From: an uncultured bacterium
GTDB lineage: Bacteria > Desulfobacterota_D > UBA1144 > Nemesobacterales > UBA2774
Direction of reading: 5' to 3'
NCBI GenBank assembly: GCA_963705505.1
Contig: CAVPJU010000010.1
Location: 28,488-92,487, forward strand
Length of the DNA stretch: 64,000 nt
In this document: positions 1 through 39,040 of the stretch, piece after piece
Position numbering within the stretch: position 1 is the stretch's first letter
How the letters are laid out: each line of letters begins with the position of its first letter
Position numbers and translations under genes: made by a program
The notes under the pieces: model-generated
The model's database searches: none
What the model was told of the DNA's origin: nothing
What the model saw: only the letters and a program-made list of their open reading frames with translations

Positions 1-707
1 GGAGGGTTATCCACGATCCTTCTTAAACCGTCCTTGACATCGGTAAGCTTGGGAAATAAAGCCTCGGATGTCCGGGACCGGGCTTCCTCTTTCTTCTTCT
101 CTATCCTTTTTACCGCGTCCTCGTGGTCTTTAAACGCCTCTATCAGGTCATCCAGGGTGATTTTCGAGTACCAAAGCTCTAACATTTTCATATCGGCGTA
201 TTCCCACATACGCGTTCTGTACGACTCGACGGCTGCCCTGACCGCCTCCTCTGCTTCTTTTTTCGAGAAATCGAGATCTCTCGCACATAGCACTATGCTT
301 ACCGCAAGCCGTTTTATGTCCCACTCCCATGCCCCCGGAAATGTTTCATCGAAATCGTTGATGTCGAATGCAAGGTTCCGCTCTGGCGTAGCGAAGCCGC
401 CGAAATTCATCAGGTGGCAATCGCCGCAGGCCTGGACGGTGATCCCCGATGCCGGAGAAAGCATGAGGTCCCGCGCCTGAATAATTGCCGATCCGCGGAA
501 GAAAGCGAAGGGTGTCTGGGCCATTCTGCCGTAGCGGATGGCGATGAGGCCGGGAATCCTGTCGGCGTTGGATTCTTCGAGAAGATCAACAACGGCCTGA
601 GGGCGAGGCCTCGGATTCCATTCCGCATGCGCCGAGCGCGGACACTTTTCGCGAAGGGCTTTACCCCGTTTCCGCCTCTCTGCATTGGTCAAGGTTTTAG
701 GCTTCAT
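1..707 (-). CDS. DUF2252 domain protein (N-terminal part; gene runs off the window start)
   Basis: Reverse-strand translation from ATG at 707 reads MKPKTLTNAERRKRGKALREKCPRS...RYGRMAQTPFAFFRGSA.., typical of the DUF2252 family. It is absent from the ORF track because no stop falls inside the window. Confidence 0.6.
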   Translation of the reverse strand, partial: MKPKTLTNAERRKRGKALREKCPRSAHAEWNPRPRPQAVVDLLEESNADRIPGLIAIRYGRMAQTPFAFFRGSAIIQARDLMLSPASGITVQACGDCHLMNFGGFATPERNLAFDINDFDETFPGAWEWDIKRLAVSIVLCARDLDFSKKEAEEAVRAAVESYRTRMWEYADMKMLELWYSKITLDDLIEAFKDHEDAVKRIEKKKEEARSRTSEALFPKLTDVKDGLRRIVDNP

Positions 708-961
708 CCGAATGTATGCTCCGCTCTTATTTCCCCGGCCGCTTCAAGTTTCAGACAATAGGCTGCATCAACCGGAGGCTGATTGAATACTTATCAGTAT
801 TCATTACAAAAAATTATAATTGATATACATGGATCAACGCAATGGATAACTTTCTGTTTGCCGGATAGAATGAGGTGAACTGCCGGAACCGATTCAGTCA
901 TAGATTATCACTCCCGCTGCGGCCCCCTGGGCGGTCGTGCCTGCCCATTTCCTGTTGTGAA

Positions 962-1423
962 TTAAATATTTGCCGAGTGCTCTTTCCAATGTTCCTTAGG
1001 TGAGCCAAGTTCTTTAAGCTTCGTTTCGAATTCGCTCAGAATCTGTAACTGCCTTTTATCCAGAGGCCGGTCGAATTGATCGCTGTGGAGTATTCGAATG
1101 ACGACGACATAGTCTTTTCTCTTTGTCTTGAGGTCGTCCGGGAGGTAGAAGACGACATTGTCATGTCTCCTTATCTCGAACCTGACATCCGGCTCGTCTC
1201 CGGAGGTGAGCCACAGGGCAAGCTCGTAGAGCTTGTCGAATACAGTCGGCTCTCCACTGGTATCTTCCCTAACTAAATTATCTGCATCCGTACCTACGAG
1301 CGCTACTGCCATGCCGACTTTGACGGGTCTGCCCTCGTCTCCCGGCAACTCTATCGGCAGGGTAGTCCAGAATACCTTGTGGTCTCTCACTAGACGTTTC
1401 ATTTCACTACTTTCCTTATCCAT
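962..1423 (-). CDS. hypothetical protein (153 aa), no recognisable domain
   Basis: Complete ORF in the six-frame track. I recognise no motif. Confidence 0.4.
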   Translation of the reverse strand: MDKESSEMKRLVRDHKVFWTTLPIELPGDEGRPVKVGMAVALVGTDADNLVREDTSGEPTVFDKLYELALWLTSGDEPDVRFEIRRHDNVVFYLPDDLKTKRKDYVVVIRILHSDQFDRPLDKRQLQILSEFETKLKELGSPKEHWKEHSANI

Positions 1424-1711
1424 CTACCGACCCTTACCTATTTCTTCGGCTGCAATTGCGGCACTCCACTTTACAATGTTGTAGAGTATACTTTGATTTC
1501 CCCTGTAAATCCATGATGAAATTTTAATCAACGAAGTCGTAACCCCCGTCTATCTCTATTATTTTTCCTGTAATTAGCTTTGAAATGTCCATGTCGAGGC
1601 CAGCTTCGGTTTCCGCCTTTTTTTGTAGCTGGCTTAAGTGATCTCTCGATTCGAGCAATCTCGCCAGTCAGGACGAGGCTAACAACCGGAATGATTTCGG
1701 TCATGAGTTCG

Positions 1712-2626
1712 TTACACCCGCCGCGGCCCCTTTTCCAGTCGGCCCCAGCCGAGCGCAATCAGGGCGGAGGCTAAAGTCTGGAATATGCCGTACACCAATA
1801 CCGCGGTCACGGCCGGCGTGCCCGGGAAGCTCCCCGTGGCAATGACGAGGCTCACACTGACATTGCGCACGGATGTCGTGAGCGCCATACTCTTACGGTT
1901 CGCGCTCCCGGATTCGCTCAGCAGAAAACCCGCCGCCAGGGATAAAATAAGGAGCGCGATCATTCCGGCGTAACCTCTCATGCTGACCGCGGTGAGCACG
2001 TGGAACTGGACTACAAGGATAAACCCCAGAACCAGTAGATTGAGAGCCTTGCTTAACTGGTTGAACGGTTTCTGCAGCCTTGCTGCTAGTGCAGGACGCC
2101 ACTGGCGAACGAAAAGCCCGATGCACAAAGGCATTAATTGAGTCACGAGGAGCGTGATGAGAACCCTGCCCGCATCTACGCTAAGCGTTTCGCCTCCCCC
2201 CATCAACGGCAGTAGCAAATACAACAGCACCGGGGCGACGATCGCAGACGATCCCGCTAGAATTACCATCAACCCGACCGCTGCGGACACATTGCCTTTG
2301 GCGATCGCGGTGAAGGGCGGAGCGTAGGGAGCGCCGGGGCACGCAGCGACAATGAGAAACCCCGCGGCCACCAGGGGATCGGGATGAAACAAAAGCAGTA
2401 ATCCAAGCACGGCAAGGGGAACGCAAACATAGTTGGCAAGCGCGGCACGCGTCACGAGGCGGAGGTTCCGGGCAACGCCCATTATCTCCGCAAACCTCAC
2501 GCTCAGACCGATGGCCACCATCATCTCAAACAGAGTGATCGTAATGAGGATGTTGATCAGCTTGTCAATCGTCATCGCGGTACCCCATATCGGCCGGGTG
2601 AGGACTATGCTATCGCTCACGAACAA
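1712..2626 (-). CDS. bile acid:sodium symporter (BASS/SBF) family transporter
   Basis: A 304-aa polytopic membrane protein with Gly/Pro-rich helices, resembling SBF-family transporters. Confidence 0.6.
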   Translation of the reverse strand: MFVSDSIVLTRPIWGTAMTIDKLINILITITLFEMMVAIGLSVRFAEIMGVARNLRLVTRAALANYVCVPLAVLGLLLLFHPDPLVAAGFLIVAACPGAPYAPPFTAIAKGNVSAAVGLMVILAGSSAIVAPVLLYLLLPLMGGGETLSVDAGRVLITLLVTQLMPLCIGLFVRQWRPALAARLQKPFNQLSKALNLLVLGFILVVQFHVLTAVSMRGYAGMIALLILSLAAGFLLSESGSANRKSMALTTSVRNVSVSLVIATGSFPGTPAVTAVLVYGIFQTLASALIALGWGRLEKGPRRV

Positions 2627-2947
2627 TAACCTTCATGGACTATAGCATACTTAGAGCTGTTCATCGTCCGTCGGCCGGGATTCGGGCAGCTCAAAAAAAC
2701 TTTTAGTGGATGAGAGTTAGTTAAATAGTAGTGGTCAAGACCGTCCGGTTAAAATAGATTTAGCCAACTTCCCTAAGCAAACATTAAGAAATGTAACCCG
2801 AAATCTGTATGTTTTTCTGACAATCTCATTCATTTCATCGATTGTAAAATAACAAAACAATCAATATTTCTAGAATGATACACCGAATCCCCAAATTGGC
2901 ATGAAATGTGCCCATAATTAATAAGAAGCATAAAAGGGAGGCGTAGC

Positions 2948-4672
2948 ATGAAAAGAATCCTGTTTGCAATATTCTTGATTTGTTCTTTTTCAATCGTTGT
3001 CAATCAAACTGCATTCTGCAAGGGAAACGACGCCAGGGCCGGTCAGGCCTACGAGCATAAGGAGACTCTCGATATAGTCGCTTTGGTAGATGACGCGGCA
3101 GAGTTGGTCAGCACCAAAGGAGAAGCGGCCTTTAGCGATTTCCGTGTGTCCGGCAGCCGCTGGCGGCAGGGAGATATGTATATATTTGTGCTGGATACTC
3201 AGGGGAACATGCTTGTTCATCCCGATCCGTCAATGGAAGGCAAGAACGAGCTTGATCTGAAGGACATCAACGGGAAACCCGTCATCCGGGGACTCATCGG
3301 CGCAGCTATGGTTCCAGGCAAATCCGAAGGCTGGTACCACTACGAATGGCCTGTTCCGGGGGGCATTCTTCCCCGATGGAAGAGCACCTACGTCCGGCTC
3401 GTGACGGCTCCCGACGGCAAGAGTTATATCGTGGGCAGCGGCATCTACAACGACCGCATGGAAAGAGCCTTCGTCGTGGATATGGTGCGGGACGCAGTCG
3501 CGCAGATCGAGAAGAACGGCGAGGCGGCTTTTAGCCTCTTCCATGATAGGACAGGTCCATTTATCGCAAAGGACGCCTACATTTTTGTCATCGACCCGAG
3601 CGGAGTCGATCTCGTCAATCCGGGCTTTCCGAACCTGGAAGGCCGCAACATTCTGGACGTGAAGGACACCCAGGGAAGGATGTTGATCCGGGAGATGCTC
3701 CGGGTCGTCGAAACCAGCGGTTCCGGCTGGGTCGACTATATGTGGCCCAAACCGGGAGAAAGTGTCTCCACTCAGAAATCCGCTTATGTGAGCAAGGCGA
3801 AGATGGGCGACCAGTGGGTGCTGGTAGGTAGCGGTGTATACCTTGCCGATGCTCCCAAAGCGGTCCAGGCCGGCGAGAAGATGACCGCTTCGGAGCTGAT
3901 GACGCTTGTCCGGGAAGGAGCAGCGGTCCTGGAAAAGCAAGGCGAGAAGGCTTATCCCGAGTTCCGACAGAAAGGATCAAAGTGGTTCCGTGATGATACT
4001 TATTTCTTTGTCTGGACCATGGACGGAACCAGAGTTTTTCATGCCGCGGATCCATCACTCGAGGGCCGGAATGCAAGCGGTGTCAAGGATGTCCTGGGAA
4101 GACCCTATGGCAAGATGTTCCTGGAGACGGCTGCCGGACCTGCCGGTGAGGGGTGGGTCCACTACATGTATCCCGAGCCGGGGAACATTTTCCCGACGTG
4201 GAAGTCAACTTTCGTGAAGCGGGTGACCTTTCCTTCCGGGAAAGAGTACATCATCGGTTCCGGTATCTACAACATGCAGATGGATAAGCCCTTCGTCGAG
4301 GATGTGGTGAATCGTGCCGCTGCCCTTGTCGCGGAACAGGGGAAGGATGCCTTTAGCCAATTGCGCGACAAGACGGGGCCCTTCATATTTATGGATACCT
4401 ATGTGTTTGTCGATACACCCGATGGCACCGAGCTGGTGAATCCCGCCCAGCCCAGCCTGGAAGGAAAGAATCTCATTGACCTGAGGGATCTGAAGGGGAA
4501 AGCGGTAGTCCGGGAGGAAATCGCCGCCGCCATGAAAGACGGCAGCGCCTGGCTCGATCTCTACTGGTACAAGCCCGGACAAAATACTCCTGCACGAAAG
4601 CGGACCTTCGTGAGGAAGGTGCAATCCGGTGAGGAGACTTATATCGTCGGCTCGGGTTTCTACCCGGAATAG
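2948..4672 (+). CDS. secreted protein with four tandem single-Cache (sCache_2-like) domains
   Basis: N-terminal signal peptide (MKRILFAIFLICSFSIVVNQTAFC). Four ~140-aa repeats each carry the motif YIFV.D..G..LVHP......G.N..D..D..G.......W..Y.WP.PG.......KS.YV......YI.GSGIY. RBS AAGGGAGG lies upstream. Confidence 0.7.
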   Translation: MKRILFAIFLICSFSIVVNQTAFCKGNDARAGQAYEHKETLDIVALVDDAAELVSTKGEAAFSDFRVSGSRWRQGDMYIFVLDTQGNMLVHPDPSMEGKNELDLKDINGKPVIRGLIGAAMVPGKSEGWYHYEWPVPGGILPRWKSTYVRLVTAPDGKSYIVGSGIYNDRMERAFVVDMVRDAVAQIEKNGEAAFSLFHDRTGPFIAKDAYIFVIDPSGVDLVNPGFPNLEGRNILDVKDTQGRMLIREMLRVVETSGSGWVDYMWPKPGESVSTQKSAYVSKAKMGDQWVLVGSGVYLADAPKAVQAGEKMTASELMTLVREGAAVLEKQGEKAYPEFRQKGSKWFRDDTYFFVWTMDGTRVFHAADPSLEGRNASGVKDVLGRPYGKMFLETAAGPAGEGWVHYMYPEPGNIFPTWKSTFVKRVTFPSGKEYIIGSGIYNMQMDKPFVEDVVNRAAALVAEQGKDAFSQLRDKTGPFIFMDTYVFVDTPDGTELVNPAQPSLEGKNLIDLRDLKGKAVVREEIAAAMKDGSAWLDLYWYKPGQNTPARKRTFVRKVQSGEETYIVGSGFYPE

Positions 4673-4837
4673 CAAATGAATATCTGCGCTAAGCTTGCAA
4701 GAAACGAATAAGGGTGAAATTCACGGAACGATAAAATGGTAAAAGCTGTGCTGGAGGCTGAATGAGCGGTCTGCCAGTCGGATAAAACGGCTGGGAGAAG
4801 GCGGGCCGGACTTGCAGAAAATCTATGAATTAGCTAA

Positions 4838-4867
4838 TGTTATTAATATGATAGAATACGTAACGCC
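4838..4867 (+). repeat. direct repeat copy 1 (28/30 identical to 12042..12071); contains a pseudo-start ATG ATA GAA TAC GTA ACG CCA TAG
   Basis: tgttattaatatgatagaatacgtaacgcc here versus tgttattaatatgatagattacgtaactcc at the radical-SAM gene start. Confidence 0.7.
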
Positions 4868-4914
4868 ATAGGTCAGTTATGTATTCCAATATCACAATCA
4901 ACGCATATGTCGGT

Positions 4915-7299
4915 TTAGTGCGTGTTCCATTTCCAGTCCCGAATCTCGGGCATGTCTTCGCCGTGTTTGTGAATATAGTGTTTGTGGTCGAGCAGTTTGT
5001 CGCGGATGAATTGTTTGGCGTAGGCGCCCCTCGAGCCCAGACTCGAAACACGATCGATCACGTCACCGACCAAATGAAATCGGTCGAGGTCATTCAGGAC
5101 CGCCATGTCGAAGGGAGTTGTAGTGGTTCCCTCTTCCTTGTAACCGCGAACGTGCAAGTTCTTGTGGTTATTTCGGCGATAGGTCAGACGATGAATCAAC
5201 CAGGGATAACCATGATAGGCGAAGATGATCGGTTTGTCCTTGGTGAAGAGCAGATCGAAGTCATTGTCACTCAGTCCATGGGGATGCTCGCTTGCAGGCT
5301 GGAGCTTCATCAAGTCCACCACGTTAATCACGCGGATCTTTAGGTCTGGTAAGTGGTGTCGCAGTATCTCCACAGCTGCCAGCGTTTCCAAGGTCGGGAC
5401 ATCTCCCGCACAAGCCATCACTACATCCGGCTCGTCCCCCTCATCGTTGCTGGCCCACTCCCAAATGCCCAGCCCAGCCGTGCAGTGTTTAACGGCGGAA
5501 TCAATATCCAGCCATTGGAGCCCCGGCTGTTTGCCTGCAACAATAACATTGACGTAATGGCGGCTGCGCAGACAATGGTCGGCCACCGACAGCAAGGTGT
5601 TGGCATCAGGCGGTAGATATACGCGGATGATATTGGACTTCTTATTCACCACATGGTCGATGAAACCCGGGTCCTGGTGACTGAAACCGTTGTGGTCTTG
5701 ACGCCACACATGAGAGGTGAGCAGATAATTCAGCGAGGCGATGGGGCGTCTCCACGGGATGTGACGTGTCACCTTGAGCCATTTGGCATGTTGGTTGAAC
5801 ATCGAGTCCACGATGTGAATGAACGCTTCATAGCAGGAGAACAACCCGTGGCGACCGGTGAGGAGATAACCTTCCAACCAACCCTGACACAAATGCTCGC
5901 TCAGCACCTCCATTACCCGGCCGTCGGGTGATACATGGTCATCCGTTTTCAGAATTTCAGCGGTGGAGACGCGGTCGGTGATGTCGAACAAGTTCGTGAG
6001 ACGGTTCGACGCGGTTTCATCGGGGCCAAAAACCCGGAAGTTACGTTCTTCCCAATTCATTTTCATGACGTCCCGTACGAACGCTCCCATGATCCGAGTC
6101 GCTTCTGCAATTTCTGTGCCAGGCTGGGGAACAGCCACTGCATAATCTCGAAAATCCGGCATTTTCAGATCGCGAAGGAGAATCCCTCCATTAGCATGAG
6201 GATTGGCCCCCATTCGCCGCTCGCCCTTCGGGGCCAGTTCAGCGAGTTCTGGAATGAGTTTACCGCTCTCATCGAAAAGCTCCTCAGGCTTGTAGCTCTT
6301 CATCCATTGCTCCAGCATTTTCAGGTGCTGGGGGTTCGTCCCAATTTCTGAAAGAGGCACTTGGTGCGAGCGAAACGTGCCCTCGACCGGCAGGCCATCC
6401 ACTTCCTTCGGGCCTGTCCAACCCTTGGGTGTGCGCAAAATGATCATGGGCCACTGCGGCCGCTTCTTAAATCCTCCAGCGCGAGCCGTAGTCTGGATGT
6501 GTGTGATCTCCTCGATGATCGTATCCAGTGTGCCGGCCATGACCTGGTGAATTTCTTCGGGCTCTTCCCCCTCGACGAAATATGGATGGTAGCCATACCC
6601 ACGAAAGAGTTGGTCCAATTCCTCGTGACTGATACGCGCTAGGATGGTGGGGTTGGCAATCTTGTAGCCATTCAGGTGAAGAATGGGCAGGACCCCTCCA
6701 TCGTGGACGGGATTGAGGAATTTGTTCGAGTGCCAACTGGCGGCCAATGGACCAGTTTCTGCTTCGCCATCGCCGACTACACATGCGACCAGCAGGCCAG
6801 GATTGTCAAACGCAGCGCCATAAGCGTGGGCTAGCGAGTAGCCAAGTTCCCCTCCTTCGTTAATCGAGCCTGGTGTTTCCGGAGCGACGTGGCTGGGAAT
6901 CCCGCCGGGAAAGGAAAACTGGGTAAACAACTTTTTCATACCCGGTTCATCCTGCGAGACTTCCGGGTAGAATTCGCTGTAGGTGTCCTCCAGATAAGTG
7001 TTGGCTACCAATCCGGGTCCTCCGTGACCAGGACCGGCGACATAGATCATGTCGAGGTTATATTTTTTGATGACCCGGTTGAGATGAACATAGATAAAGT
7101 TCAAACCGGGCGTGGTGCCCCAATGACCGAGGAGTCGTGGCTTTACGTGCTCAAGCTTGAGCGGTTTCTTCAACCGCGGGTTGTCACAAAGATAAATTTG
7201 GCCGACAGATAGATAGTTGGCGGCACGCCAATAGGCATTCATCTTTCGCAGCTCATCGTCTGTGAGCGTCTTATCCGCAGGGTTCGTCTTTTTATTCAT
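4915..7299 (-). CDS. xfp: xylulose-5-phosphate/fructose-6-phosphate phosphoketolase
   Basis: 794/799 aa with the characteristic N-terminus ...[15 protein letters not shown]..., [13 protein letters not shown] and the TPP-binding region. The likely ATG start ([10 protein letters not shown]) is preceded by GAGGAG; the ORF track extends it 5 codons to a TTG. Confidence 0.93.
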
Positions 7300-7463
7300 C
7301 GATCTTCTCCTCAACGCTCACTGAGACTGATTAAGATGCATATACTCATTCATATATAAAATATACTTTCGTCATTCGGAAATAACTAATATGGTTATTC
7401 GTTCACACACGCCGAAGTAATATTGTCTCCGGCTTCATGGACGTTCCCGCGTTAAAAGTCGAG

Positions 7464-10007
7464 TCACCGCTGCCACAGGATGTGAGGGGCTTCCAGGGGA
7501 ACCACAACCCCGGGGTAGCTTGGTATCACTCGCGCCGTATAGTCAGTCGCCGGGCGTGTTGCAGGCACTCGTGCGCTATAGACGTAGACGCTAACTGCCC
7601 CCTCAGGTTGTCGGACCTGTGTCATTTCCTGCCGCACGGAACCGCCGCCGTTGAGTCCCCGGGCATAAAGCTCTACTCGTACCGCACTCGGGTCGAGGTC
7701 ATTAAGATAGACCTGAATTTCAAAGACATATTCTTCCCCATCGGTCTCAACCTTCTCGTCGCTTAAGCGCAGCGTATCCCAATTTTCTTTCAGAGCCTGT
7801 TGCCAATTGACTAGCTGCACACCCACTGCGCCTTTATCATATGCGCGTTTACGGCAGGCAGTTGCAGCCGGGAGGTAGTGATCCTCGGTATATTCGCGGA
7901 CTGTGCGGGCGGCGGAAAAACGCGGCGTCAATTGCGCCATGCTTTCCCGCATCCGCGCCACCCAAGCAGTGGGAATGCCCTTCGCGTCCCGGTTGTAGAA
8001 CTCGGGGATCACCTCGTGTTCGAGCAAGTCGTAGAGCGCTTCCGCTTCGGCAACGTCCCAGGCCGGATCGTTGCCATGTTCCCGGCCGTCACCCAACGCC
8101 CACCCCACTTCCGGAGTGTAGGCTTCCGCCCACCAGCCATCCAACTCCGAGAGGTTGATACCACCATTGACGAGCACCTTCATGCCGCTCGTTCCGCTGG
8201 CCTCCCATGGCCGTCGCGGCGTGTTGATCCAGACATCCACACCCTGTACCAGACGCTCAGCCAATGACATGTCGTAGTCACCGAGGAACATCACATGGTT
8301 GCGCGCCTTGGGCCTCAGGATGAATTGGATCCATTCACGGATCATGGCCTGGCCCGGATGGTCCGCCGGATGGCTCTTGCCGGCAATGATGAGTTGCGCG
8401 GGGCGCTGAGGGTTCGTTAACAGGCGAAGCAACCGGTCCGGGTCGTGCAGAAGGAGATTCGGTCTTTTATAGGTTGCGAAGCGGCGCGCAAAGCCCAACG
8501 TCAGTGTGTTGGGATTGAATAGGCGATTCACCCCCTTTGCCTTGGACGCCATTCCGGAGGCGGTCATTTGCTTTGTCAATCGTTCTCGAGCGTATTCAAT
8601 GAGAGACTTGCGGACAGTGGAGCGCAGTTGCCACAGCTTGGCGTCGGGGACGCGGCGTATGTCCTGGTCCAGGGTTTCCGTCGTTCTCCGCCAGGGGTGT
8701 TTCCCGCAAGCCTCGGTCCAAAGGCCGTCGGCGGCTGCCGAGTCCCAAGTTGTCATGTGGACTCCATTGGTCACGTGCCCGACCGGCACTTCATCCTCCG
8801 GCCAGCTAGGGAAAAGAGGTTGAAAAATGCGCCGGCTTACCTCCCCATGCAGGCGGCTCACCCCGTTTATCGCTCCACTTCCTCGAGCCGCAAGGTAAGC
8901 CATATTGAAAGGCTCTGACGAGTCGTTCGGGTTTTGCCGGCCAAGGGCCAGCAAATCGTAGAGTGCAATGCCGAGCTTATTTCGAGCGTAATCACCGAGG
9001 TACTGCTCGATGAGGTCAGGAGCGAAGCTGTCAAAACCGGCAGCCACCGGCGTGTGTGTGGTGAAGAGGTTACCAGCTCGTGTGACGGCAAGGGCGACCT
9101 CGAAAGATTGTCCTGTTTCCTCCATGAAACATCGTGCGCGTTCCAGCACCGCAAAAGCCGCATGCCCTTCATTCAGGTGGCAGACTTCCGGCTGGATGCC
9201 GAGCGAACGAAGTAGCCGCCAGCCGCCGATCCCTAGTACTAGTTCTTGCTTGAGGCGCAGCTCTGGCCCGCCCCCGTAAAGCTCGCTTGTAATTCCTCTA
9301 TGAGCCGGGAAGTTCACCGCGTCATTGCTGTCCAGCAGGTAAAGCTTCACTCTGCCAACCTGGACCTGCCATGCACGCAGCGAGACCGAGTAACCGGGTA
9401 ATTCGATCTCCACCCGCAACCACTCCCCGCTCGATTCCCGCAGGGGTAGGATCGGCAATTGACCGGCATCATTGAAGGGGAAGAGAGCCTGTTGCGCCCC
9501 GTCCTTGTCGATCACCTGGCGAAAATAGCCCTGCTGGTAGAGCAGCCCCACGGCGACCACCGGCACACCCAGGTCGCTGGCGGCTTTAAGCTGGTCGCCG
9601 GCCACATTGCCAAGCCCGCCTGAATAGATGGGGAGAGCTTCGCTCAACATGAATTCCATGCTGAAATAAGCGATATAGATCAGGGGTGCTTCTGGATGAT
9701 GTTGCTGAAACCATGCAGGCGTCCGGGCTGCCGACTGCCTATCCTGCAGCACGTCACTCAGCTGTTTGCGAAAGTCGGAATCGGATAAGACCCGCTCGAG
9801 CTGTTTCCTCGAGACAGTTTGCAGGACGACCCAGGGATTATGCGTACGTTCCCATAGCGCTGGATCAAGTTGCATCCAGATTCCATCGGCGGCATGATTC
9901 CACGCCGAGCGCATGTCCAGCGCCAACTCTGCGAGCGAATCGAATCCCTCCAGATCAGTGGGTAGAAAAGAGTAGATCGGGTTGTTAATGAGTGCTTGTT
10001 TGCTCAT
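7464..10007 (-). CDS. glgP: alpha-glucan (glycogen) phosphorylase, GT35 / GlgP family
   Basis: 847 aa with the DUF3417 N-terminal region and a GT35 phosphorylase core (..EASGTSGMK.. pyridoxal-phosphate lysine motif). A good RBS lies upstream. Confidence 0.88.
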   Translation of the reverse strand: MSKQALINNPIYSFLPTDLEGFDSLAELALDMRSAWNHAADGIWMQLDPALWERTHNPWVVLQTVSRKQLERVLSDSDFRKQLSDVLQDRQSAARTPAWFQQHHPEAPLIYIAYFSMEFMLSEALPIYSGGLGNVAGDQLKAASDLGVPVVAVGLLYQQGYFRQVIDKDGAQQALFPFNDAGQLPILPLRESSGEWLRVEIELPGYSVSLRAWQVQVGRVKLYLLDSNDAVNFPAHRGITSELYGGGPELRLKQELVLGIGGWRLLRSLGIQPEVCHLNEGHAAFAVLERARCFMEETGQSFEVALAVTRAGNLFTTHTPVAAGFDSFAPDLIEQYLGDYARNKLGIALYDLLALGRQNPNDSSEPFNMAYLAARGSGAINGVSRLHGEVSRRIFQPLFPSWPEDEVPVGHVTNGVHMTTWDSAAADGLWTEACGKHPWRRTTETLDQDIRRVPDAKLWQLRSTVRKSLIEYARERLTKQMTASGMASKAKGVNRLFNPNTLTLGFARRFATYKRPNLLLHDPDRLLRLLTNPQRPAQLIIAGKSHPADHPGQAMIREWIQFILRPKARNHVMFLGDYDMSLAERLVQGVDVWINTPRRPWEASGTSGMKVLVNGGINLSELDGWWAEAYTPEVGWALGDGREHGNDPAWDVAEAEALYDLLEHEVIPEFYNRDAKGIPTAWVARMRESMAQLTPRFSAARTVREYTEDHYLPAATACRKRAYDKGAVGVQLVNWQQALKENWDTLRLSDEKVETDGEEYVFEIQVYLNDLDPSAVRVELYARGLNGGGSVRQEMTQVRQPEGAVSVYVYSARVPATRPATDYTARVIPSYPGVVVPLEAPHILWQR

Positions 10008-10121
10008 GGTTTCTCCTTCAGATTTTTCCGTAAAGAAAATCCGGAACTACATTTACTATGTTTTTCCTTCGCTGCAATACACATCAACAGGCCTGCTTCA
10101 TATGTTGCGATAACGGCTCGA

Positions 10122-11786
10122 TCATGTATCGTTGCTGCTCCTTGCCGCCTTCAAAGCGCAGTTGACGATTGCCTGTGCCTCTTCCTGGATGCGGCGCAAA
10201 TGATCCTTCCCACTAAAACTCTCCGCATAAATCTTGTAGATATCCTCCGTCCCGGAAGGACGAGCCGCGAACCATCCGGTCTCGGCAATAATCTTCAATC
10301 CCCCGATGGAACCGCCATTGCCCGGTGCTTGAGTGAGTATGGCTTGGATTTTTTCGCCCGCCAGATCTGTGGATCGAACCTGGTCGGGTGAGAGTCTTTC
10401 CAGCGCTTCCTTTTGCTCCTGGGTGGCTGGCGCCTCAATCCGTTCGTAAACGGGCTCACCTAACTCACGAGTAAGCTTCCGGTAGATCTCGCCAGGGTCG
10501 CAGCCCATACGTGCTGTGATCTCTGCCGAGAGCAGCGCTGGGATGATACCGTCTTTATCCGTGGTCCATACACTACCATCAAGGCGGAGAAAAGAAGCTC
10601 CCGCGCTTTCTTCACCGACGAAACCAAGCGAACCATCAAGGAGACCATCAACGAACCACTTAAAGCCAACCGGCACCTCATAGAGCTTCCTACCGAGCTT
10701 GGCGGTGACGCGATCTATCATCTGGCTACTTACAACTGTCTTACCTACCGCCGCTTCCTGCCGCCACTTAGGTCGGTATTGGAAAAGGTAGAAGATGGCG
10801 ACTGACAGATAGTCATTGGGCGGCAACAAACCCACACTCTTGGTAACAATGCCGTGTCGGTCATGATCTGTGTCGCAGGCGAATGCGATCTCGAAACGAT
10901 CCTTCAATTTGATTAATCGCTGCATCACATAGGGCGAGGAAGGATCCATGCGTACCTGGCCATCCCAATCAACGGTCATGAAACGAAAGGTCGGATCGAC
11001 CATCTCGTTTACGATCTTGAGGTTCAACCCGTAGCGATCAGCAATCGGACCCCAATAGTGGACCCCGGCTCCACCGAGTGGATCCACGCCCAGGCTGATC
11101 TTCGAACCGCGGATGGCGTCCATGTCAATTACACTGCCGAGGTCGTTCACATAAGCATCAAGGTAGTCGTACCGGTGCGTCGTGTCTGCGCGAAGAGCTT
11201 TTTCAAAGGAAATTCTTTTTACGCCTTGGAGGCGATTTTTGAGAAACTCATTTGCCTTCGCCTCGATCCAGCCGGTAATGTCAGGTCCCGCCGGCCCGCC
11301 GGTGGGGGGATTGTACTTTAAGCCACCATCATCCGGCGGGTTGTGCGAGGGCGTGATCACAATGCCATCGGCAACTCCTGTTGTGCGGTTGCGGTTGTAC
11401 ATTAGAATCGCGTGAGAAACGGCAGGAGTCGGCGTATATTCATCACGCTCAGCGATCATGACATCCAATCCGTTTGCCGCCAGCACTTCAAGCACACTGG
11501 CAAAAGCCGGCACGGAAAGTGCATGGGTGTCCATACCCAGGAACAGCGGGCCATCGATCTTCTGCTGCTGGCGGTACAGGCAAATGGCCTGACTGATTGA
11601 GAGAATATGCCATTCATTGAAAGTCTTCTCGAATGATGAACCACGATGCCCCGAGGTACCGAACACGACCCTTTCTTCAGTAACCGAATGATCAGGCATC
11701 TCACTATAATAAGCAGTGACTAGCTTGGGTATATTAACCAGCCTTGAAGGCTTGACAGGCTTTCCTGCAAAATGATTCAAATTCAT
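10122..11786 (-). CDS. pgm: phosphoglucomutase (alpha-D-glucose-phosphate specific)
   Basis: 554 aa with the active-site TPSHNP and GGPAG.. motifs of the PGM/PMM family. Confidence 0.9.
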   Translation of the reverse strand: MNLNHFAGKPVKPSRLVNIPKLVTAYYSEMPDHSVTEERVVFGTSGHRGSSFEKTFNEWHILSISQAICLYRQQQKIDGPLFLGMDTHALSVPAFASVLEVLAANGLDVMIAERDEYTPTPAVSHAILMYNRNRTTGVADGIVITPSHNPPDDGGLKYNPPTGGPAGPDITGWIEAKANEFLKNRLQGVKRISFEKALRADTTHRYDYLDAYVNDLGSVIDMDAIRGSKISLGVDPLGGAGVHYWGPIADRYGLNLKIVNEMVDPTFRFMTVDWDGQVRMDPSSPYVMQRLIKLKDRFEIAFACDTDHDRHGIVTKSVGLLPPNDYLSVAIFYLFQYRPKWRQEAAVGKTVVSSQMIDRVTAKLGRKLYEVPVGFKWFVDGLLDGSLGFVGEESAGASFLRLDGSVWTTDKDGIIPALLSAEITARMGCDPGEIYRKLTRELGEPVYERIEAPATQEQKEALERLSPDQVRSTDLAGEKIQAILTQAPGNGGSIGGLKIIAETGWFAARPSGTEDIYKIYAESFSGKDHLRRIQEEAQAIVNCALKAARSSNDT

Positions 11787-12041
11787 TGCATAACGACCTG
11801 ATGCTGTTCTAAATCATGTATGAATAAATAAGACAATAAAGAATCCGGAAGCCGCTATATCAAAAACCAAGACCCCAACCTTATTCTAAACAATTATTAT
11901 TAAGGTATTGTGAAAATCAGAGCAATAGAAACCGATGAATGAATTTTTTATCAGATTTTTACGCGAGACTATATGTTAATTCGTCTGATATTTCGCATGC
12001 TTTAGCGAACGTGATTTGTAAAAATCCTGAACATTTGTTAG

Positions 12042-12071
12042 TGTTATTAATATGATAGATTACGTAACTCC
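12042..12071 (+). repeat. direct repeat copy 2, overlapping the true start of the radical-SAM gene
   Basis: See copy 1. Confidence 0.7.
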
Positions 12072-12948
12072 CTACTTCAGGCCCCCGAGCGAGGGTAATA
12101 GCTTCATTCTCCAGGCGACGATAGGCTGCTCCCACAACCAGTGCACTTACTGTGCAATGTACAGAGAGGAGGAGCAGAGGTTCCGCATACGTCCGATGGA
12201 AGAGATAAAGCAGATCATAGACGAAGCGAGCGAATCGGGACAAATAGACGACCGTGTATTCATAGCCGACGGCAATGCGCTTGTACTTTCGCAGAAGAAG
12301 CTCATCGAAATCATGGAGTATCTCAGAGAAAAATCCCCCGGCATCGGGCGTATCAGGATGTATGCGAACGTCGGCGATATACTGAGGAAAGGGGTCGGGA
12401 ACCTGAAAGAGCTGAAGATGCTCGGCCTCGACATGGTTTATATAGGTTTTGAGAGCGGGGACGATATAGTCCTCGAGCGGATAAAAAAAGGGGCGAGCTT
12501 TGATCAGACGGTGAAGGCGTCCCGGATGCTGAAGGAAGCGGGGATAATGAACTCAGCCATGGTGCTTCTCGGCATGGGCGGCGTCGAGAGGAGTGCCGAG
12601 CACGCGGAAGCGACAGGCAGGCTCCTCACTGCGTGCGACCCCGAATACGTCGGCGCGCTTTCCCTCCAGCTCCGTCCGGGTGCGCCCGTGTACGACGAAT
12701 GGAAGAGGGGGGAATTCGAGCTTCCGGGTAAGTTTCAGATGATCACGGAGCTTCGAATACTCGTCGAGAATACGGAGCTTACAGACGGGTACTTCTTCTC
12801 GAACCACATCTCGAATTATCTGCCTATCAAGGCGAAGTTCCCCGAGGACAAGGAAGAGGTGCTCCGGCAGATAAGAGCCGTGCTCGAGAGCGGGGACGAG
12901 TCGCTTCTCCGCCCCGATTATTACAGGGACGTCATAAACCAGTACTGA
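12052..12948 (+). CDS. radical SAM protein
   Basis: 298 aa with the CxxxCxxC motif (CSHNQCTYC) near the N-terminus. Confidence 0.7.
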   Translation: MIDYVTPYFRPPSEGNSFILQATIGCSHNQCTYCAMYREEEQRFRIRPMEEIKQIIDEASESGQIDDRVFIADGNALVLSQKKLIEIMEYLREKSPGIGRIRMYANVGDILRKGVGNLKELKMLGLDMVYIGFESGDDIVLERIKKGASFDQTVKASRMLKEAGIMNSAMVLLGMGGVERSAEHAEATGRLLTACDPEYVGALSLQLRPGAPVYDEWKRGEFELPGKFQMITELRILVENTELTDGYFFSNHISNYLPIKAKFPEDKEEVLRQIRAVLESGDESLLRPDYYRDVINQY

Positions 12949-12987
12949 ACTATCTTTAATAATAACCAAACTTAAAGGAGAAATATT

Positions 12988-13923
12988 ATGCCCAGGATCG
13001 CCACGATTTCACCTGTCTGGGGATGCAGTATAGCCGACCTCCGCGCCCTCGCGAATGAGGCGGAAGCGGGGGGTTTCGAAGCTATATTCTCCCCCGAGGT
13101 GCCGCCGTATAACGGTTTATCGAACGCTCAGGTCTTTGCCGAAGCTACGAGCAAGATCAAGGTAGGCACGTGGATAACAAATATTTACATGCGTCTGCCC
13201 GTGATCGCGGCCGCGACCGCCCTCACTATTCAGGAGTTATCGGGCGGCAGGATGGTGCTCGGTCTCGGCGTTAGCCATAAGCCCGTAAACGACAGGTACG
13301 GCATAGAGATGGGGGACCCCATAGAGAAAATGAGGGGATACGTGAAGGCTGTGAAGTCCTTCATGGACGGTACGGCCCCGCAGCTGACCCTCAAACGCGA
13401 GCTGCCGAAAGTCCCCGTGTATATCGCGGGACTCACGAAAGGGGCGGCCAAGCTCGCTGGTGAAGTAGCGGACGGAATAATGCCTTACATGTCCACGCCG
13501 GAATATATCAAGACGCTGGCGGGATACGTTGCCGAAGGTGCTAAGGCTGCCGGACGAGACCCTTCTGAGATAGACATCACGCTCGGCATACCGTCTGTCG
13601 TATCGGACGACCTCGGGCTCGCCAGGAAGGCGGGCAAGCGCGGCCTCTCCGGATATCTTCGGTTTCCGTTCTATCAGAGGCTCATGAGGAATAACGGCTT
13701 CGGCGACGTAATTGACAAGATCAATGGCGGAGCGGATCCGGCAGAGGTATTCACGGACGAGATGCTCGACGCCGTTGCGCTCGTAGGCCCGGCGGAAAGG
13801 TGCAGGGAGAGGCTCGAGGCATACAGAAAAGCAGGGGTCGGTCTCCCGATAATCGTGCCCAACGCCGCGGGAAAACAGAGCAACATCGAGGTAATGAAAA
13901 TCACCGTCGCGGCGTATAAGTAG
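12988..13923 (+). CDS. LLM-class (luciferase-like) flavin/F420-dependent oxidoreductase
   Basis: 311 aa with an LLM TIM-barrel signature (..GRMVLGLGVSHK..). RBS AAAGGAG upstream; co-directional with the radical-SAM gene across a 39-nt gap. Confidence 0.7.
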   Translation: MPRIATISPVWGCSIADLRALANEAEAGGFEAIFSPEVPPYNGLSNAQVFAEATSKIKVGTWITNIYMRLPVIAAATALTIQELSGGRMVLGLGVSHKPVNDRYGIEMGDPIEKMRGYVKAVKSFMDGTAPQLTLKRELPKVPVYIAGLTKGAAKLAGEVADGIMPYMSTPEYIKTLAGYVAEGAKAAGRDPSEIDITLGIPSVVSDDLGLARKAGKRGLSGYLRFPFYQRLMRNNGFGDVIDKINGGADPAEVFTDEMLDAVALVGPAERCRERLEAYRKAGVGLPIIVPNAAGKQSNIEVMKITVAAYK

Positions 13924-14145
13924 TAGTACTTCATTTGTATGAGCGGCTTCCGCCGCGTCCGAACGAAGACCAGGCTTATCTGTCATTTCGAACACACGTG
14001 AGAAATCTATTTTTTAATCCCCTCTCCCCTCCGAGGGAGAGGGCAAGGGTGAGGGGGTACATTAGAAATAAAAACTGCGTTCGTCACTGAGCGCACACGT
14101 AGTGTGCCGTCGAAGGGTGAGTTGGGATGGGTAAAAACAGCTGCC

Positions 14146-15858
14146 TCACTTCTGCTCCACTTGCAATGTCCTCAGCCTGTTTATCGCCGCGGCAAGCTCG
14201 ATCTTCCTGAACTCCGCATAGCCTCCCGAAATCCTCGTACCTATGACATCGAGCCCGTCCCTCGCTATGTCCATCATTACGAGGGATGCCACCTCCCTCA
14301 ATGTCCTCTTCCCGTCCATGTACCTCCGCGCGTACTCTATGGCGTCCCCGATCGCCGCAGTCTGGCATATATCCACAAGCTGCTCGACGGCGTGCAGGTC
14401 TATCTTCTGTCTCCCGAAAGATATCGATTGGAGGCTCTTGGCCGAAATCTTGACGTCCTTCTTCCCCTTCCTCGGGTCGAAGCTCCCGGCAAGAGGTATC
14501 CTGTCGGTCACCCTCCCTAATGGGCCTCCCCCCTCCTTCTTCCTCTCGCTCGGGAACCTCCGCGCTATTTCGAGCGCCTCGGCAGTGACATTCGCAGGCT
14601 TATATTCGATCATACAGATCACGTGGTCTGCCACATCGAAGTAGTCCCCGGAGCCCCCCATCACGAGCACCGTTGATACCCTCTGGTCCGTGTAGAGGCT
14701 CCTGACCGTGTCTATGTAGGGCGTTATAGGCTCCCTGTCCTTCGATACGAGCTCCTGCATGCGGTGGTCCCTTATCATGAAGTTCGTCGCCGAGGTGTCC
14801 TCGTCGATCAGCAGCACGTGAGCGCCCGATTCGAGCGATTCCAGTATGTTCGCCGCCTGAGACGTGCTTCCGCTCGCATCCTCGGTTGAGAAGGACTTGG
14901 TGTCCTTCCCGTAGGGGAGGTTCGAGATGAATGGCGATATGTCCACCTTCTCGATCCGCCTCCCGTCCTCGGCCCTTATCCTGACCGCGTTCGGGTTGGT
15001 GACGACGAACTCCCTCCCGTCCCCGGGAATGTGGTTGTAGATGCCCTCGGATACGGCCTCAAGCAGAGTGGACTTGCCGTGATACCCGCCTCCGACGATG
15101 AGCGTCACCCCTTTCGGTATCCCCATCCCGGATATCTGCCCCCTGTTCGGAAGCTCTACGTCCATTTTGAGTGAAGGAGGGGACTCGAACGGGACCGCCT
15201 CGTCTTCACTCATAGGCCCCGGGTCGATTCCGCTCGCTCGGGGGAGTATGCTCCCCTCAGCGATGAAGGATACGCAGCCGAGCCCTTCTATCTCGTTCCG
15301 GAGAAAATCCGCGTCCTCAGCCGTCTCGATGTGCTCGTATAGAGCGTCCTCGTCGAGGTTCCCGAATATCATCGAAAACCTGACTATCTTCGGAAGCTCC
15401 TCGAAGAACATGGCCTCCGCGTGCTTCCCGGCCACACTGCGTCCGAAAGCCGGCAGGCCCATCCCGAACCTCGCTTCGGCATACATGTGCGTGACGACCA
15501 CCGACGAGCGCTCGAGTATCTGCTGGCCCGGCCTGCTCATGGATATCAGGCCGCTCTTCCCGCTCCCCCTGTTCCCTAAGGAGAACTTCTCCGACGCTGA
15601 GTTGAATGCCCTGGCGATGAAGTCCCTGAGCGCGATCTCCCTCGTCTTCCCGGAGTAGGTGTCCTTCGGGAACCCGGCGGTGTCCTGATAGACCCTTACC
15701 CTCACGCGGGACGGCGAGGCGAAGGGGTCCCCCTGCACCCGGTCTATATAGAATACGAAATCGTCAAACCCGTACTCGCCCGCAATATCCCTGTACGCTG
15801 GGTATCCCCTGCCGTCTATAATCCTGAGCGCGTCCCTCAAATCGTGTGCGGTCTTCAT
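14146..15858 (-). CDS. ABC_ATPase domain protein (COG3044 / PF09818-like predicted ATPase of the ABC class)
   Basis: 570 aa. Walker A GGGYHGKST, Walker B LLIDE, overall similarity to the 'predicted ABC-class ATPase' family. Confidence 0.65.
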   Translation of the reverse strand: MKTAHDLRDALRIIDGRGYPAYRDIAGEYGFDDFVFYIDRVQGDPFASPSRVRVRVYQDTAGFPKDTYSGKTREIALRDFIARAFNSASEKFSLGNRGSGKSGLISMSRPGQQILERSSVVVTHMYAEARFGMGLPAFGRSVAGKHAEAMFFEELPKIVRFSMIFGNLDEDALYEHIETAEDADFLRNEIEGLGCVSFIAEGSILPRASGIDPGPMSEDEAVPFESPPSLKMDVELPNRGQISGMGIPKGVTLIVGGGYHGKSTLLEAVSEGIYNHIPGDGREFVVTNPNAVRIRAEDGRRIEKVDISPFISNLPYGKDTKSFSTEDASGSTSQAANILESLESGAHVLLIDEDTSATNFMIRDHRMQELVSKDREPITPYIDTVRSLYTDQRVSTVLVMGGSGDYFDVADHVICMIEYKPANVTAEALEIARRFPSERKKEGGGPLGRVTDRIPLAGSFDPRKGKKDVKISAKSLQSISFGRQKIDLHAVEQLVDICQTAAIGDAIEYARRYMDGKRTLREVASLVMMDIARDGLDVIGTRISGGYAEFRKIELAAAINRLRTLQVEQK

Positions 15859-16099
15859 CGATTCGGGAATAATATGATACTTTGAGAGTGAAGTCCACAG
15901 CGGGAATATCTAAAACCGGACAGCCCGAAAACAGACATTGAGGGCACCGGTTTTCATAGACTCAGCCGCGGCTATAAATTTGTGAACGGGTGCTGTTAAA
16001 ACTTGTGGAAATGCAAAAATAAATATTGTATGTTGTTTGGTGGTTGGGGGATATAACACACCGCGGGCGGATTTCAATTTCACTGAAGGAGGTATTGGT

Positions 16100-20805: not shown

Positions 20806-21477
20806 ATGGACTCGGACACGAAAGGCGTTATAAGCTGGGAATACCTCGGCACCGTGAGTTATTCCGACGGCTTGGCGCTCCAGAACGAGCGGCGCGAGAG
20901 AATGCGCTCGGGAGGCTCCGGTACAGGCGGCTACCTTCTCCTCCTCCAGCATCACCCCGTCATCACGGACGGCAGGTTCGGGCGCGGCGGCAACATCATA
21001 CTCACGCCCGAAGCGATGGAGAAGCGCGGCGTCGAGTTATATAAAACCGAGAGGGGAGGGGACGTCACGTTCCACGGCCCCGGCCAGCTCGTCGCGTACC
21101 CGATAATCGATCTCCGGGCTTTCGGTCTCGGGGCGAAAGCCTACGTCGGCGCTCTCGAGGACACCGTCGTACGCGTGATCGGGGATTTCGGTCTGCAAGG
21201 TGTGCGCATGGAGAAGCTTCGCGGCGTCTGGGCTTACGGAGGCAAGATCGCGTCTGTCGGGGTCTCGGTCAGGGGCGGAATAACCATGCACGGCTGCGCG
21301 CTTAACGTGAATACCGACCTCAGCTATTTCTCCATGATAATCCCCTGCGGCATCGAGGGCGTTATGATAACGTCGATGAAGGATATTCTGGACGAGGAGA
21401 TCGACTTCGAAGCGGTTAGCGCATCGTTCGTCCGTCATTTCGGCGAGGTCTTCAAAGCCGAGATGAGAAGTTCGTAG
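20806..21477 (+). CDS. lipB: lipoyl(octanoyl) transferase
   Basis: LipB motifs: LLLLQHHPV.T.G, ...RGGDVTFHGPGQLV.YP..., catalytic Cys in IPCG. Confidence 0.88.
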   Translation: MDSDTKGVISWEYLGTVSYSDGLALQNERRERMRSGGSGTGGYLLLLQHHPVITDGRFGRGGNIILTPEAMEKRGVELYKTERGGDVTFHGPGQLVAYPIIDLRAFGLGAKAYVGALEDTVVRVIGDFGLQGVRMEKLRGVWAYGGKIASVGVSVRGGITMHGCALNVNTDLSYFSMIIPCGIEGVMITSMKDILDEEIDFEAVSASFVRHFGEVFKAEMRSS

Positions 21478-38308: not shown

Positions 38309-39040
38309 ATGCAGGACTCACACACGGATTCAGGATTCGATATCCAAGCCCAGGGACTGACGAAGTCGTTCGGTAATTTTGAAGCCCTCTGCGGGATAGA
38401 CCTCGATATCAGAAAGGGGGAGTTCTTCACCCTGTTCGGCCCGAACGGAGCGGGCAAGACCACTTTTATCCGGATACTCTCCACCCTTGCAAAACCCTCC
38501 TCGGGAAAGCTGACGATATCGGGGTTCGATGCGAGGAAGGAGCCCGACAAGGTGAGACGGGTTACCGGGGTGATATCGCACGACCCGTTTTTATACGAGA
38601 ACCTGAGCGCGTTCGAGAATATAAAATTCTTCGGGACCCTTTACGGGGTCGAGAACATAGATGACAGGGGCGAGGAAGTCATAAAACAGGTCGGACTCGG
38701 TCAGCGCATGCACGATCTCGTGAGGAATTTCAGCCGGGGCATGAAGCAGCGCCTGGCGGTAGCGCGGGCGATAGTACACGAGCCCGGGATACTCCTCCTG
38801 GATGAGCCTTATACGGGGCTCGACCAGCACGGGGCAAAAGTATTCGGGGAGATGCTCACACTCCTTAAATCCCGGAACCGGACGATACTAATGACAACTC
38901 ACAATATGGATGAAGGCCTTGACCGGAGCGACCGTATAGGCATTCTCGCCGGGGGGCGTATAGTCTATGAATGCGGAAGGGAAGGGGTGGATAAGGACAC
39001 CTTCAAGGAAATATACATTTCGAGTGTGGAAAATTCATAA
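38309..39040 (+). CDS. ccmA: ABC transporter ATP-binding protein, heme exporter CcmA-like
   Basis: Walker A GPNGAGKTT, signature FSRGMKQRL, Walker B LLLDEP. It is followed by ccmB and ccmC. Confidence 0.75.
   Translation: MQDSHTDSGFDIQAQGLTKSFGNFEALCGIDLDIRKGEFFTLFGPNGAGKTTFIRILSTLAKPSSGKLTISGFDARKEPDKVRRVTGVISHDPFLYENLSAFENIKFFGTLYGVENIDDRGEEVIKQVGLGQRMHDLVRNFSRGMKQRLAVARAIVHEPGILLLDEPYTGLDQHGAKVFGEMLTLLKSRNRTILMTTHNMDEGLDRSDRIGILAGGRIVYECGREGVDKDTFKEIYISSVENS

Follow-up and report, generated by a model that had tools for sequence, protein, structure and literature searches.

A foreign xfp-glgP-pgm operon at a recurrent insertion hotspot upstream of a radical-SAM gene in Dadabacteria

A foreign carbohydrate operon, made up of genes for a phosphoketolase (xfp), an alpha-glucan phosphorylase (glgP) and a phosphoglucomutase (pgm), sits beside a radical-SAM (rSAM) gene in a 64,000-nt stretch of DNA from an uncultured member of the Dadabacteria (contig CAVPJU010000010.1, positions 28,488 to 92,487; "the window" below means this whole stretch). 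By comparison with close relatives the operon is an insertion, its composition is foreign, and a copy of it is found in another context. The place that it occupies is marked in related loci by recurrent truncated copies of the rSAM start (stubs) accompanied by different cargo; the flanks are mosaic, and no mobility genes were found. We think it fairly likely that the operon was placed at this hotspot by integrase-independent recombination within the promoter/5' segment of the rSAM gene, of either the Campbell type or the one-sided homologous type. The route itself we infer.

An earlier account of the window, made from its letters alone (the sequence-only reading), had drawn attention to a direct repeat around the three genes and had explained it as an insertion at the 5' end of the rSAM gene that duplicated the start of that gene. 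Relatives with an empty site bear out the insertion; a fresh duplication in place does not fit, since the two copies of the repeat differ in history.

The empty site in relatives

Scanning species-representative genomes with the rSAM protein returned 56 loci (numbered below with the prefix L), nearly all of them from metagenome-assembled genomes (MAGs) of Candidatus Dadabacteria or Thermodesulfobacteriota. In L001, whose rSAM is 90% identical to that of the window, and in L031 and L015/L075, a Cache-domain gene stands directly before the rSAM gene. About 178 nt separate the two, the repeat occurs once and xfp-glgP-pgm is absent; the sequence-only reading had proposed just this check, whether the Cache gene abuts the rSAM gene without the module. 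By blastn, window positions 2689-4876 correspond to L001 7843-10029 (91.6% identity) and window positions 12033-13916 to L001 9982-11866. The two alignments overlap by 48 nt in L001 and skip 4877-12032, which is therefore an insertion relative to these close relatives, and the 48 nt of L001 occur twice in the window, once on each side of the insert. In about 135 other loci, from genomes and metagenomes, xfp, glgP and pgm were not found within 10 kb of the rSAM gene. The insert and the genes to its right are as follows.

4877-12032, minus strand: insert missing from the empty-site relatives, 7156 nt; xfp-glgP-pgm operon, pgm upstream region and, from about 11986, the type B rSAM upstream region (see below)
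12052-12948, plus strand: rSAM gene (Pfam Radical_SAM)
12988-13923, plus strand: luciferase-like/F420-type oxidoreductase gene (Pfam Bac_luciferase)

The rSAM gene and the luciferase-like (LLM) gene are kept as a pair in about 90 loci, and this pair defines the hotspot. The rSAM protein falls below every NCBIfam cut-off; the LLM protein resembles F420-dependent oxidoreductases and scores under the NCBIfam cut-offs too.

The repeat and the truncated rSAM start

The core of the repeat, the 30-nt sequence TGTTATTAATATGATAGAATACGTAACGCC at 4838-4867, recurs at 12042-12071 with 28 of 30 positions identical, just as the sequence-only reading had it. That reading had suggested looking for further copies in the genome; no third match with three or fewer mismatches is present in the 64 kb, and none arose in 100 dinucleotide-preserving shuffles. 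The second copy does hold the true start of the gene, for it contains the ATG (12052) of a 298-aa rSAM open reading frame (ORF) beginning MIDYVTP. The first copy reads ATG ATA GAA TAC GTA ACG CCA TAG at 4848-4871, that is MIEYVTP-stop, a dead end of seven codons that stops 43 nt (rather than the 45 nt first given) from the stop codon of the convergent xfp gene (4915-4917). The repeat also brackets the module as claimed. Its length of 30 bp was an underestimate: ungapped similarity around the core extends over 68 nt at 75% identity (4809-4876 against 12013-12080, a spacing of 7204), and a profile of rSAM starts matches the stub over 4772-4876. The repeated unit is thus larger than 30 bp and comprises the whole promoter plus the rSAM start. 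Homology of the stub to the intact gene stops about 25-29 nt past the ATG.

4772-4876, plus strand: stub, a truncated copy of the rSAM upstream region, promoter and first codons (nhmmer profile of rSAM starts, E ~1e-15)
4812-4817, plus strand: -35 element of the stub, TTGCAG (this and the next three read from the sequence)
4835-4840, plus strand: -10 element of the stub, TAATGT
4848, plus strand: ATG of the stub
4869-4871, plus strand: TAG of the stub
4838-4867, plus strand: core, copy 1
12042-12071, plus strand: core, copy 2, carrying the real rSAM start
11986-12051, plus strand: native type B upstream region and promoter of the intact rSAM gene (alignments with L032, L004, L002 and L003 and with the stubs of L001 and L015)

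A nucleotide profile built on the rSAM promoter/5' region matches the window at these two places and nowhere else, and the idea of a dispersed motif was rejected. A search of viral contigs for a 20-mer gave three matches, all in one unrelated phage gene and without similarity outside the 20-mer, and these were put down to chance.

The intact rSAM gene is preceded by a predicted promoter (-35 TTGTAA at 12016-12021, -10 TAGTGT at 12039-12044), with the ATG 7 nt after the -10 element and no Shine-Dalgarno sequence. When the start regions of intact genes from many loci are aligned, the same order is seen: TTGCAA or TTGTAA, 16-17 nt, TAGTGT or TAATGC, 7 nt, then ATG or GTG, again with no Shine-Dalgarno sequence. 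This promoter-like arrangement is conserved across distant loci. The 7-nt distance from the -10 element to the start codon and the missing Shine-Dalgarno sequence together suggest that the rSAM mRNA is probably leaderless, a prediction from sequence. The stub retains an intact copy of the predicted promoter, which would be directed antisense to xfp and into its 3' end.

The -10 element and the first six codons make up the 30-nt core, and it is conserved in every intact rSAM gene. This accounts for the pattern in the window, where the two copies agree at 28 of 30 positions in the core and are only about 60% identical further upstream. Gene conversion within the genome was considered as a cause of the 28/30 match and set aside as unneeded, the core being equally conserved in all intact genes. 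Upstream of the core the two window copies belong to different sequence types. Type A follows the Cache gene; it lies before the intact rSAM genes of L001, L015 and L031 and also before two stubs, those of the window and of L007. Type B is ancestral and lies before the intact rSAM genes of the window, L032, L004, L002, L003, L007 and L018, as well as before the stubs of L001 and L015.

The inserted operon

All three genes of the insert lie on the minus strand, and they were assigned by family models.

4915-7314, minus strand: xfp, phosphoketolase (Pfam XFP_N, XFP and XFP_C; NCBIfam NF003619, 1523 bits against a cut-off of 962)
7464-10007, minus strand: alpha-glucan (glycogen/maltodextrin) phosphorylase of the DUF3417 type (Pfam DUF3417 and Phosphorylase; TIGR02094, 798 bits against a cut-off of 192)
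10122-11786, minus strand: pgm, phosphoglucomutase (TIGR01132 equivalog, 868 bits against a cut-off of 778)

Together these enzymes take alpha-glucan to glucose-1-phosphate and on to glucose-6-phosphate, and split sugar phosphates to acetyl-phosphate. Pfam and NCBIfam annotation of the module gives xfp, glgP and pgm only, in keeping with the earlier statement that no integrase or transposase is present. On the left the module ends 38 nt past the xfp stop; on the right it ends in the upstream region of pgm, where the edge can be placed only between about 11860 and 11985, identity to the L057 and L058 counterparts of this region being about 50-60% and fading. Homology of the region upstream of the window's rSAM gene to L032 and L004 begins at 11986-12021.

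The codon usage of the module sets it apart from its surroundings. Of 47 long ORFs in the window, 44 served as the comparison for the three that make up the module. AGR makes up 0.11 of arginine codons in xfp, 0.11 in glgP and 0.18 in pgm, against 0.63 +/- 0.16 (standard deviation, SD) in the other ORFs; ATA makes up 0.02, 0.10 and 0.08 of isoleucine codons, respectively, against 0.51 +/- 0.13 (SD). The module thus lies about 3 SD away from the 44 other ORFs, and these per-gene fractions bear out the contrast, noticed earlier in spot checks, between a module using CGN and ATC/ATT and neighbours rich in AGG and ATA.

Copies of the module are also found in other surroundings. The nearest, in L057, is a pgm-glgP-xfp cluster with 88% nucleotide identity to window 4911-11804 and unrelated flanks, the match running from 4 nt beyond the xfp stop to 18 nt before the pgm ATG; genes flanking it in L057 have Dadabacteria-like codon use and the module genes do not. 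Pairs of pgm and glgP occur in still other contexts in L058, L139, L140, L141 and L142, with xfp, ackA, pgi or tal nearby. The nearest named homologues are 75-82% identical and belong to Acidobacteriota, Syntrophales, Anaerolineae, Verrucomicrobiota and other groups. Foreign codon use, copies in other contexts and homologues in other phyla together argue that the operon is a widely travelled unit that came into this lineage from outside. The horizontal acquisition proposed earlier stands on its codon use and on the different contexts in L057 and L058, and an empty site, deviant codon use and occurrence of the block elsewhere, the usual marks of an acquired island, are all present. A literature search combining Dadabacteria with phosphoketolase returned no papers.

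One of the other-context clusters, L139 (noted at 4368-5413), belongs to another organism and is arranged tal-pgi-pgm-glgP...ackA-(xfp?), with several genes split by frameshifts and with ISL3 transposase fragments about 5 kb upstream. There too, a pgm-glgP cluster lies near mobile DNA.

A recurrent insertion hotspot

The ancestral state of the site is a small gene, here called c9, followed directly by rSAM: c9 lies immediately upstream of rSAM in 43 Dadabacteria loci, across a gap of 192-805 nt, and the two genes are 1.0-8.8 kb apart in 16 loci. The c9 product (about 166 aa; L004:2920-3420) has no Pfam or NCBIfam match, and no c9 is present in the window. It may be that c9, rSAM and the LLM gene form a conserved unit.

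What lies between c9 and rSAM varies greatly: a Na/Pi cotransporter with or without PAP2, GT2-PMT_2-GT2, Usp, DUF2252-SBF, Cache, a low-GC TauD-ACP-GNAT-GNAT-ATP-grasp cluster (block M1), or xfp-glgP-pgm, the last in the window only. M1 is found at L004:4920-9891, L007:4896-9822 and L032:1729-6950, and also in L062, L060 and L002, with a GC content of 0.41-0.46; it encodes a TauD-family dioxygenase, an 86-aa ACP-like ORF, one or two 380-aa GNAT-like paralogues and an ATP-grasp protein. M1 shares its strand with the stub promoter; it may represent a small biosynthetic cluster expressed from that predicted promoter.

Like the window, nine records (L001, L031, L015, L075, L004, L032, L062, L007 and L018) each have exactly one additional, truncated copy ahead of the intact gene according to the rSAM-start profile; L075 is apparently the same as L015, leaving eight independent loci. 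In more distant loci the profile finds no extra copy. The stubs end at different points, as listed here by distance past the ATG.

+25: xfp module to the right, in the window
+45: Usp to the right, in L001 and L031 (probably a later deletion)
+88: M1 to the right, with the same junction in all five of L004, L032, L062, L007 and L018
+110: Usp to the right, in L015

These four breakpoints can be read as at least three primary events. Every insertion that bears a stub leaves an intact rSAM gene on its right, and though their ends differ, all stubs share the segment from -10 to +25, which is also the predicted promoter and N-terminus. No recombinase was found by Pfam and NCBIfam annotation among the window's three module genes or the main ORFs of the relatives' blocks (Usp, Na/Pi cotransporter, DUF2252, SBF, Cache, TauD, GNAT-like, ATP-grasp, GT2 and PAP2), a scan that did not take in smaller ORFs such as the 86-aa ACP-like one. 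Because related genomes have other blocks and the same kind of stub at the same spot, the site directly upstream of rSAM is a recurrent, lineage-specific insertion hotspot whose annotated block genes include no integrase.

Mosaic flanks

To the left of the insert the window has two further blocks of the hotspot.

1-2626, minus strand: older hotspot block (Pfam), comprising DUF2252 (3-707, cut by the window edge), an ORF (962-1423) and an SBF transporter (1712-2626)
2689-4876, plus strand: Cache cassette, comprising the Cache-domain gene (2948-4672), the type A spacer and the stub (continuous L001 alignment; Pfam dCache_2/sCache_2)

The Cache gene is itself atypical in codon use (AGR/Arg 0.30, ATA/Ile 0.15), as is SBF, and it is a further block at the hotspot, not a native flank. 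Identity to L001, taken in sliding segments, is 0.88-0.95 over about 2700-4876 and 0.76-0.86 in all other flanks, on both sides of the insert. The Cache gene and stub thus belong to a 2.2-kb cassette that was the subject of a recent exchange with the L001 clade, and copy 2 and the rSAM gene belong to a genome background of about 82% identity. Since copy 1 lies in a segment about 92% identical to L001 and copy 2 in this background, the pair did not arise as a fresh duplication of the target in place.

Other loci show comparable mixtures. From Cache to the end of the stub L007 aligns with L015, and from the stub onward, across M1 and into rSAM, it aligns with L004. Both alignments take in the 109-nt stub, as expected of a homologous crossover inside it. 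In L018 the order is SBF-stub-M1, with no Cache, and in L001 and L031 the DUF2252-SBF block sits between the stub and Cache. A single MAG, MFD09730.bin.2.52 (L001, L007 and L031), holds three versions of the locus, Usp-NaPi-DUF2252-SBF-Cache twice and Usp-Cache-stub-M1 once, which suggests rearrangements segregating within populations or one sample, whether through strain heterogeneity or mixed binning.

Several minor features of these flanks were also noted. The ORF at 962-1423 (minus strand, 153 aa) has no Pfam match and host-like codon use; L001 and L018, although otherwise collinear, lack it. Downstream of Cache, a block of about 85 nt beginning AAGGGTGAAATTCACGGAACGATAAAATGGTAAAAGCTGTGCTGGAGGC is near-identical in the window (4700-4800), L001 (9850-9950), L015, L031 and L007. 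It was considered as a riboswitch and rejected, with no Rfam match and a Cache-to-stub spacer that folds no better than shuffles (z = -0.7); its near-identity probably reflects recent common ancestry of the Cache cassette. A scan of positions 1-16000 with Rfam (E<=1) gave only a spurious snoRNA match, and a supposed decayed promoter remnant between SBF and Cache in L001 (7780-7843) was not significant by nhmmer.

How the operon may have reached the site

The geometry at the site is a truncated promoter/5' piece, then the block, then a complete promoter and gene. Two routes would produce it. A circular DNA bearing the block and a promoter/5' piece could enter by a single crossover, as in Campbell-type integration. 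Alternatively, linear DNA could recombine homologously on the gene side and be joined illegitimately on the other. Either route would leave the resident promoter/5' piece behind as a stub, keep the gene intact and call for no recombinase encoded by the element, and either would bring together two different alleles of the repeat. The right copy would then drive the intact rSAM gene, and the left copy would be a relic cut about 25 nt into the coding sequence. Once formed, a stub (about 100-190 nt) could serve as a left homology arm and the rSAM gene as a right arm, allowing ordinary homologous recombination to move blocks between strains and to stack them. Such recombination between stub arms would account for L007, L018 and the mosaic in the window.

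One-sided homologous recombination coupled to an illegitimate join is an established process, defined as homology-facilitated illegitimate recombination, or HFIR (PMC3240628). The scars expected of this process or of Campbell-type integration are present in the window, namely a stub truncated at +25, an intact gene and two copies of the repeat from different backgrounds.

That said, several observations weigh against recombination of this kind. The longest uninterrupted identity between the present repeat copies is 18 nt, which is short for RecA. A donor arrangement, with the module beside rSAM and no stub, or in circular or plasmid form, was not found among about 140 loci, so the model does not account for the first junction between the foreign operon and the promoter/5' piece. 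In three blocks the break falls inside the first 110 nt of a single gene, and two blocks (M1 and M3) have their right junctions about 100 nt upstream of the ATG; random illegitimate joins would be expected to scatter more widely, and the clustering hints at a site-specific process. Moreover, all of the loci are metagenome assemblies, and the mechanism is read from scars in their sequence.

The clustering of breakpoints and right junctions is the reason for keeping a site-specific recombinase acting in trans as a rival. The 5' end of rSAM would then be the attB site of a recombinase that either is encoded elsewhere and acts in trans or has been lost from each block. The blocks would be integrative elements or cassettes, and the stubs would be attL sites bearing the gene-like portion of attP, much as at islands in tRNA genes or SXT in prfC. 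This would explain why at least three different blocks used the same narrow target with the intact gene restored each time, why the M1 and M3 right junctions agree, and why the segment from -10 to codon 7 is so highly conserved. It finds no recombinase, though, among the three module genes or the annotated ORFs of the relatives' blocks, and there is no space for lost mobility genes in a module that starts 38 nt beyond the xfp stop and reaches only to the pgm upstream region. Neither inverted repeats nor dif-like motifs occur at the core, whose conservation is equally explained by its role as promoter and N-terminus, and the stub ends differ between blocks. We regard a recombinase of this sort as unlikely, if the strongest of the competing accounts.

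A bolder idea, and one that we hold to be more doubtful still, is that the rSAM promoter/5' end is a dedicated gene-capture site in one clade of Dadabacteria. Foreign multi-gene cassettes would be added there serially, the newest beside the gene, each bringing or regenerating a copy of the promoter and start, with no known integrase and through either a RecA platform templated by stubs or an unrecognised recombinase in trans.

To return to recombination in the promoter/5' segment, its remaining competitors fare much worse. If the module were ancestral here, the empty relatives would have lost it by deletion between the repeats; direct repeats can indeed mediate precise deletion, and the empty site is the exact product expected. 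That the module was ancestral is nevertheless very improbable, given that it is at this site in none of the approximately 135 other rSAM loci, that c9 adjoins rSAM in 43 loci, that its codon use is foreign to the genome and that its nearest copy (L057) is elsewhere; an insertion generating a duplication would in any case still be required to make the repeats. Direct repeats flanking an insert also recall a transposon or insertion sequence with its target-site duplication, but such duplications are identical and 2-14 bp long, whereas this repeat is 48-105 nt, imperfect and made up of two diverged alleles; with no transposase and no terminal inverted repeats (the ends share only chance matches of 6-7 nt), transposition is scarcely tenable. 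Least credible of all is a chance repeat or a chimeric assembly: every sequence does come from a MAG or metagenome contig, and MFD09730.bin.2.52 does hold three versions of the locus, but none of the 100 shuffles gave a match, the junction of stub and xfp has no shared sequence to mislead an assembler, and the same architecture recurs in eight more independent loci, which come from several MAG and metagenome assemblies.

Relation to known systems

The feature in the window is an acquired metabolic island at a hotspot with a duplicated target-gene end, and as such it is of an already known kind. What is unusual is the serial stacking of unrelated, stub-marked blocks whose annotated genes include no mobility gene.

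The closest likeness is to products of Campbell-type integration and HFIR, in which the insert also lies between two copies of a shared segment, one complete gene is kept and no element recombinase is involved. The repeat copies can be different alleles, one of the donor and one of the recipient, as they are in the window. Those processes were defined in the laboratory, whereas the one in the window is inferred from scars, and repeated use of a single 200-nt target by unrelated cargo would be unusual for them.

Islands at gene ends offer a second comparison. SXT/R391 integrates at the 5' end of prfC and other islands at the 3' ends of tRNA genes, and these elements rebuild the target gene. Such islands and integrative and conjugative elements carry a gene for a tyrosine or serine integrase, and their crossover core is short and defined. 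They share with the present case the insertion into a conserved gene end, the incoming promoter or terminus and the duplication of the gene end as a direct repeat; tandem stacking with repeated partial sites is possible in both. Here, direct repeats derived from the target gene are likewise present, but no integrase gene was found in the module and no integrase or mobility gene among the annotated genes of the blocks, and the stubs vary in length.

Homologous recombination in the flanks is the explanation given for exchange at integrase-free hotspots, a class that includes flexible or "replacement" genomic islands and minimal mobile elements. Unrelated blocks lie between two conserved genes without mobility genes, as they do here, though such hotspots normally contain no duplicated gene fragment, and the present one has, at each junction, a promoter/5' stub of the core gene on the right, with blocks in series. 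Integron cassette arrays resemble it in their serial stacking at one site beside a promoter and differ in that the blocks here are multi-gene and in either orientation. No intI is present among the annotated genes, and Rfam and folding scans of the junctions showed no structured element, though attC was not searched for with a dedicated model. As for elements exploiting the Xer/dif system (IMEX), no ATAA-N6-TTAT motif, a loose consensus test only, occurs on either strand of either repeat copy.

The case is of interest on several counts. In an uncultured phylum, the gain of a complete glycogen-to-phosphoketolase operon can be followed with the empty site, a donor-like copy elsewhere and the scar all visible. 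It indicates that a chromosomal hotspot can gather unrelated metabolic, transport and biosynthetic blocks with no mobility genes in the blocks. Short relics of a core gene could supply the homology that moves such blocks between strains, and the hybrids described above fit crossovers inside stubs. Should the clustered breakpoints reflect a specific mechanism, this would be a new route of cassette acquisition; otherwise, the locus is a useful worked example of integrase-free island formation.

Other codon-usage outliers in the window

Codon usage also singles out a few ORFs far from the hotspot. The ORF at 58107-59315 (plus strand) is a strong outlier, with 55 arginines in 402 aa, an AGR/Arg fraction of 0.15 and a GC content at third codon positions (GC3) of 0.51. 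Milder outliers are the ORFs at 20806-21477, which has a lipoate-protein ligase domain, and at 38309-39040.

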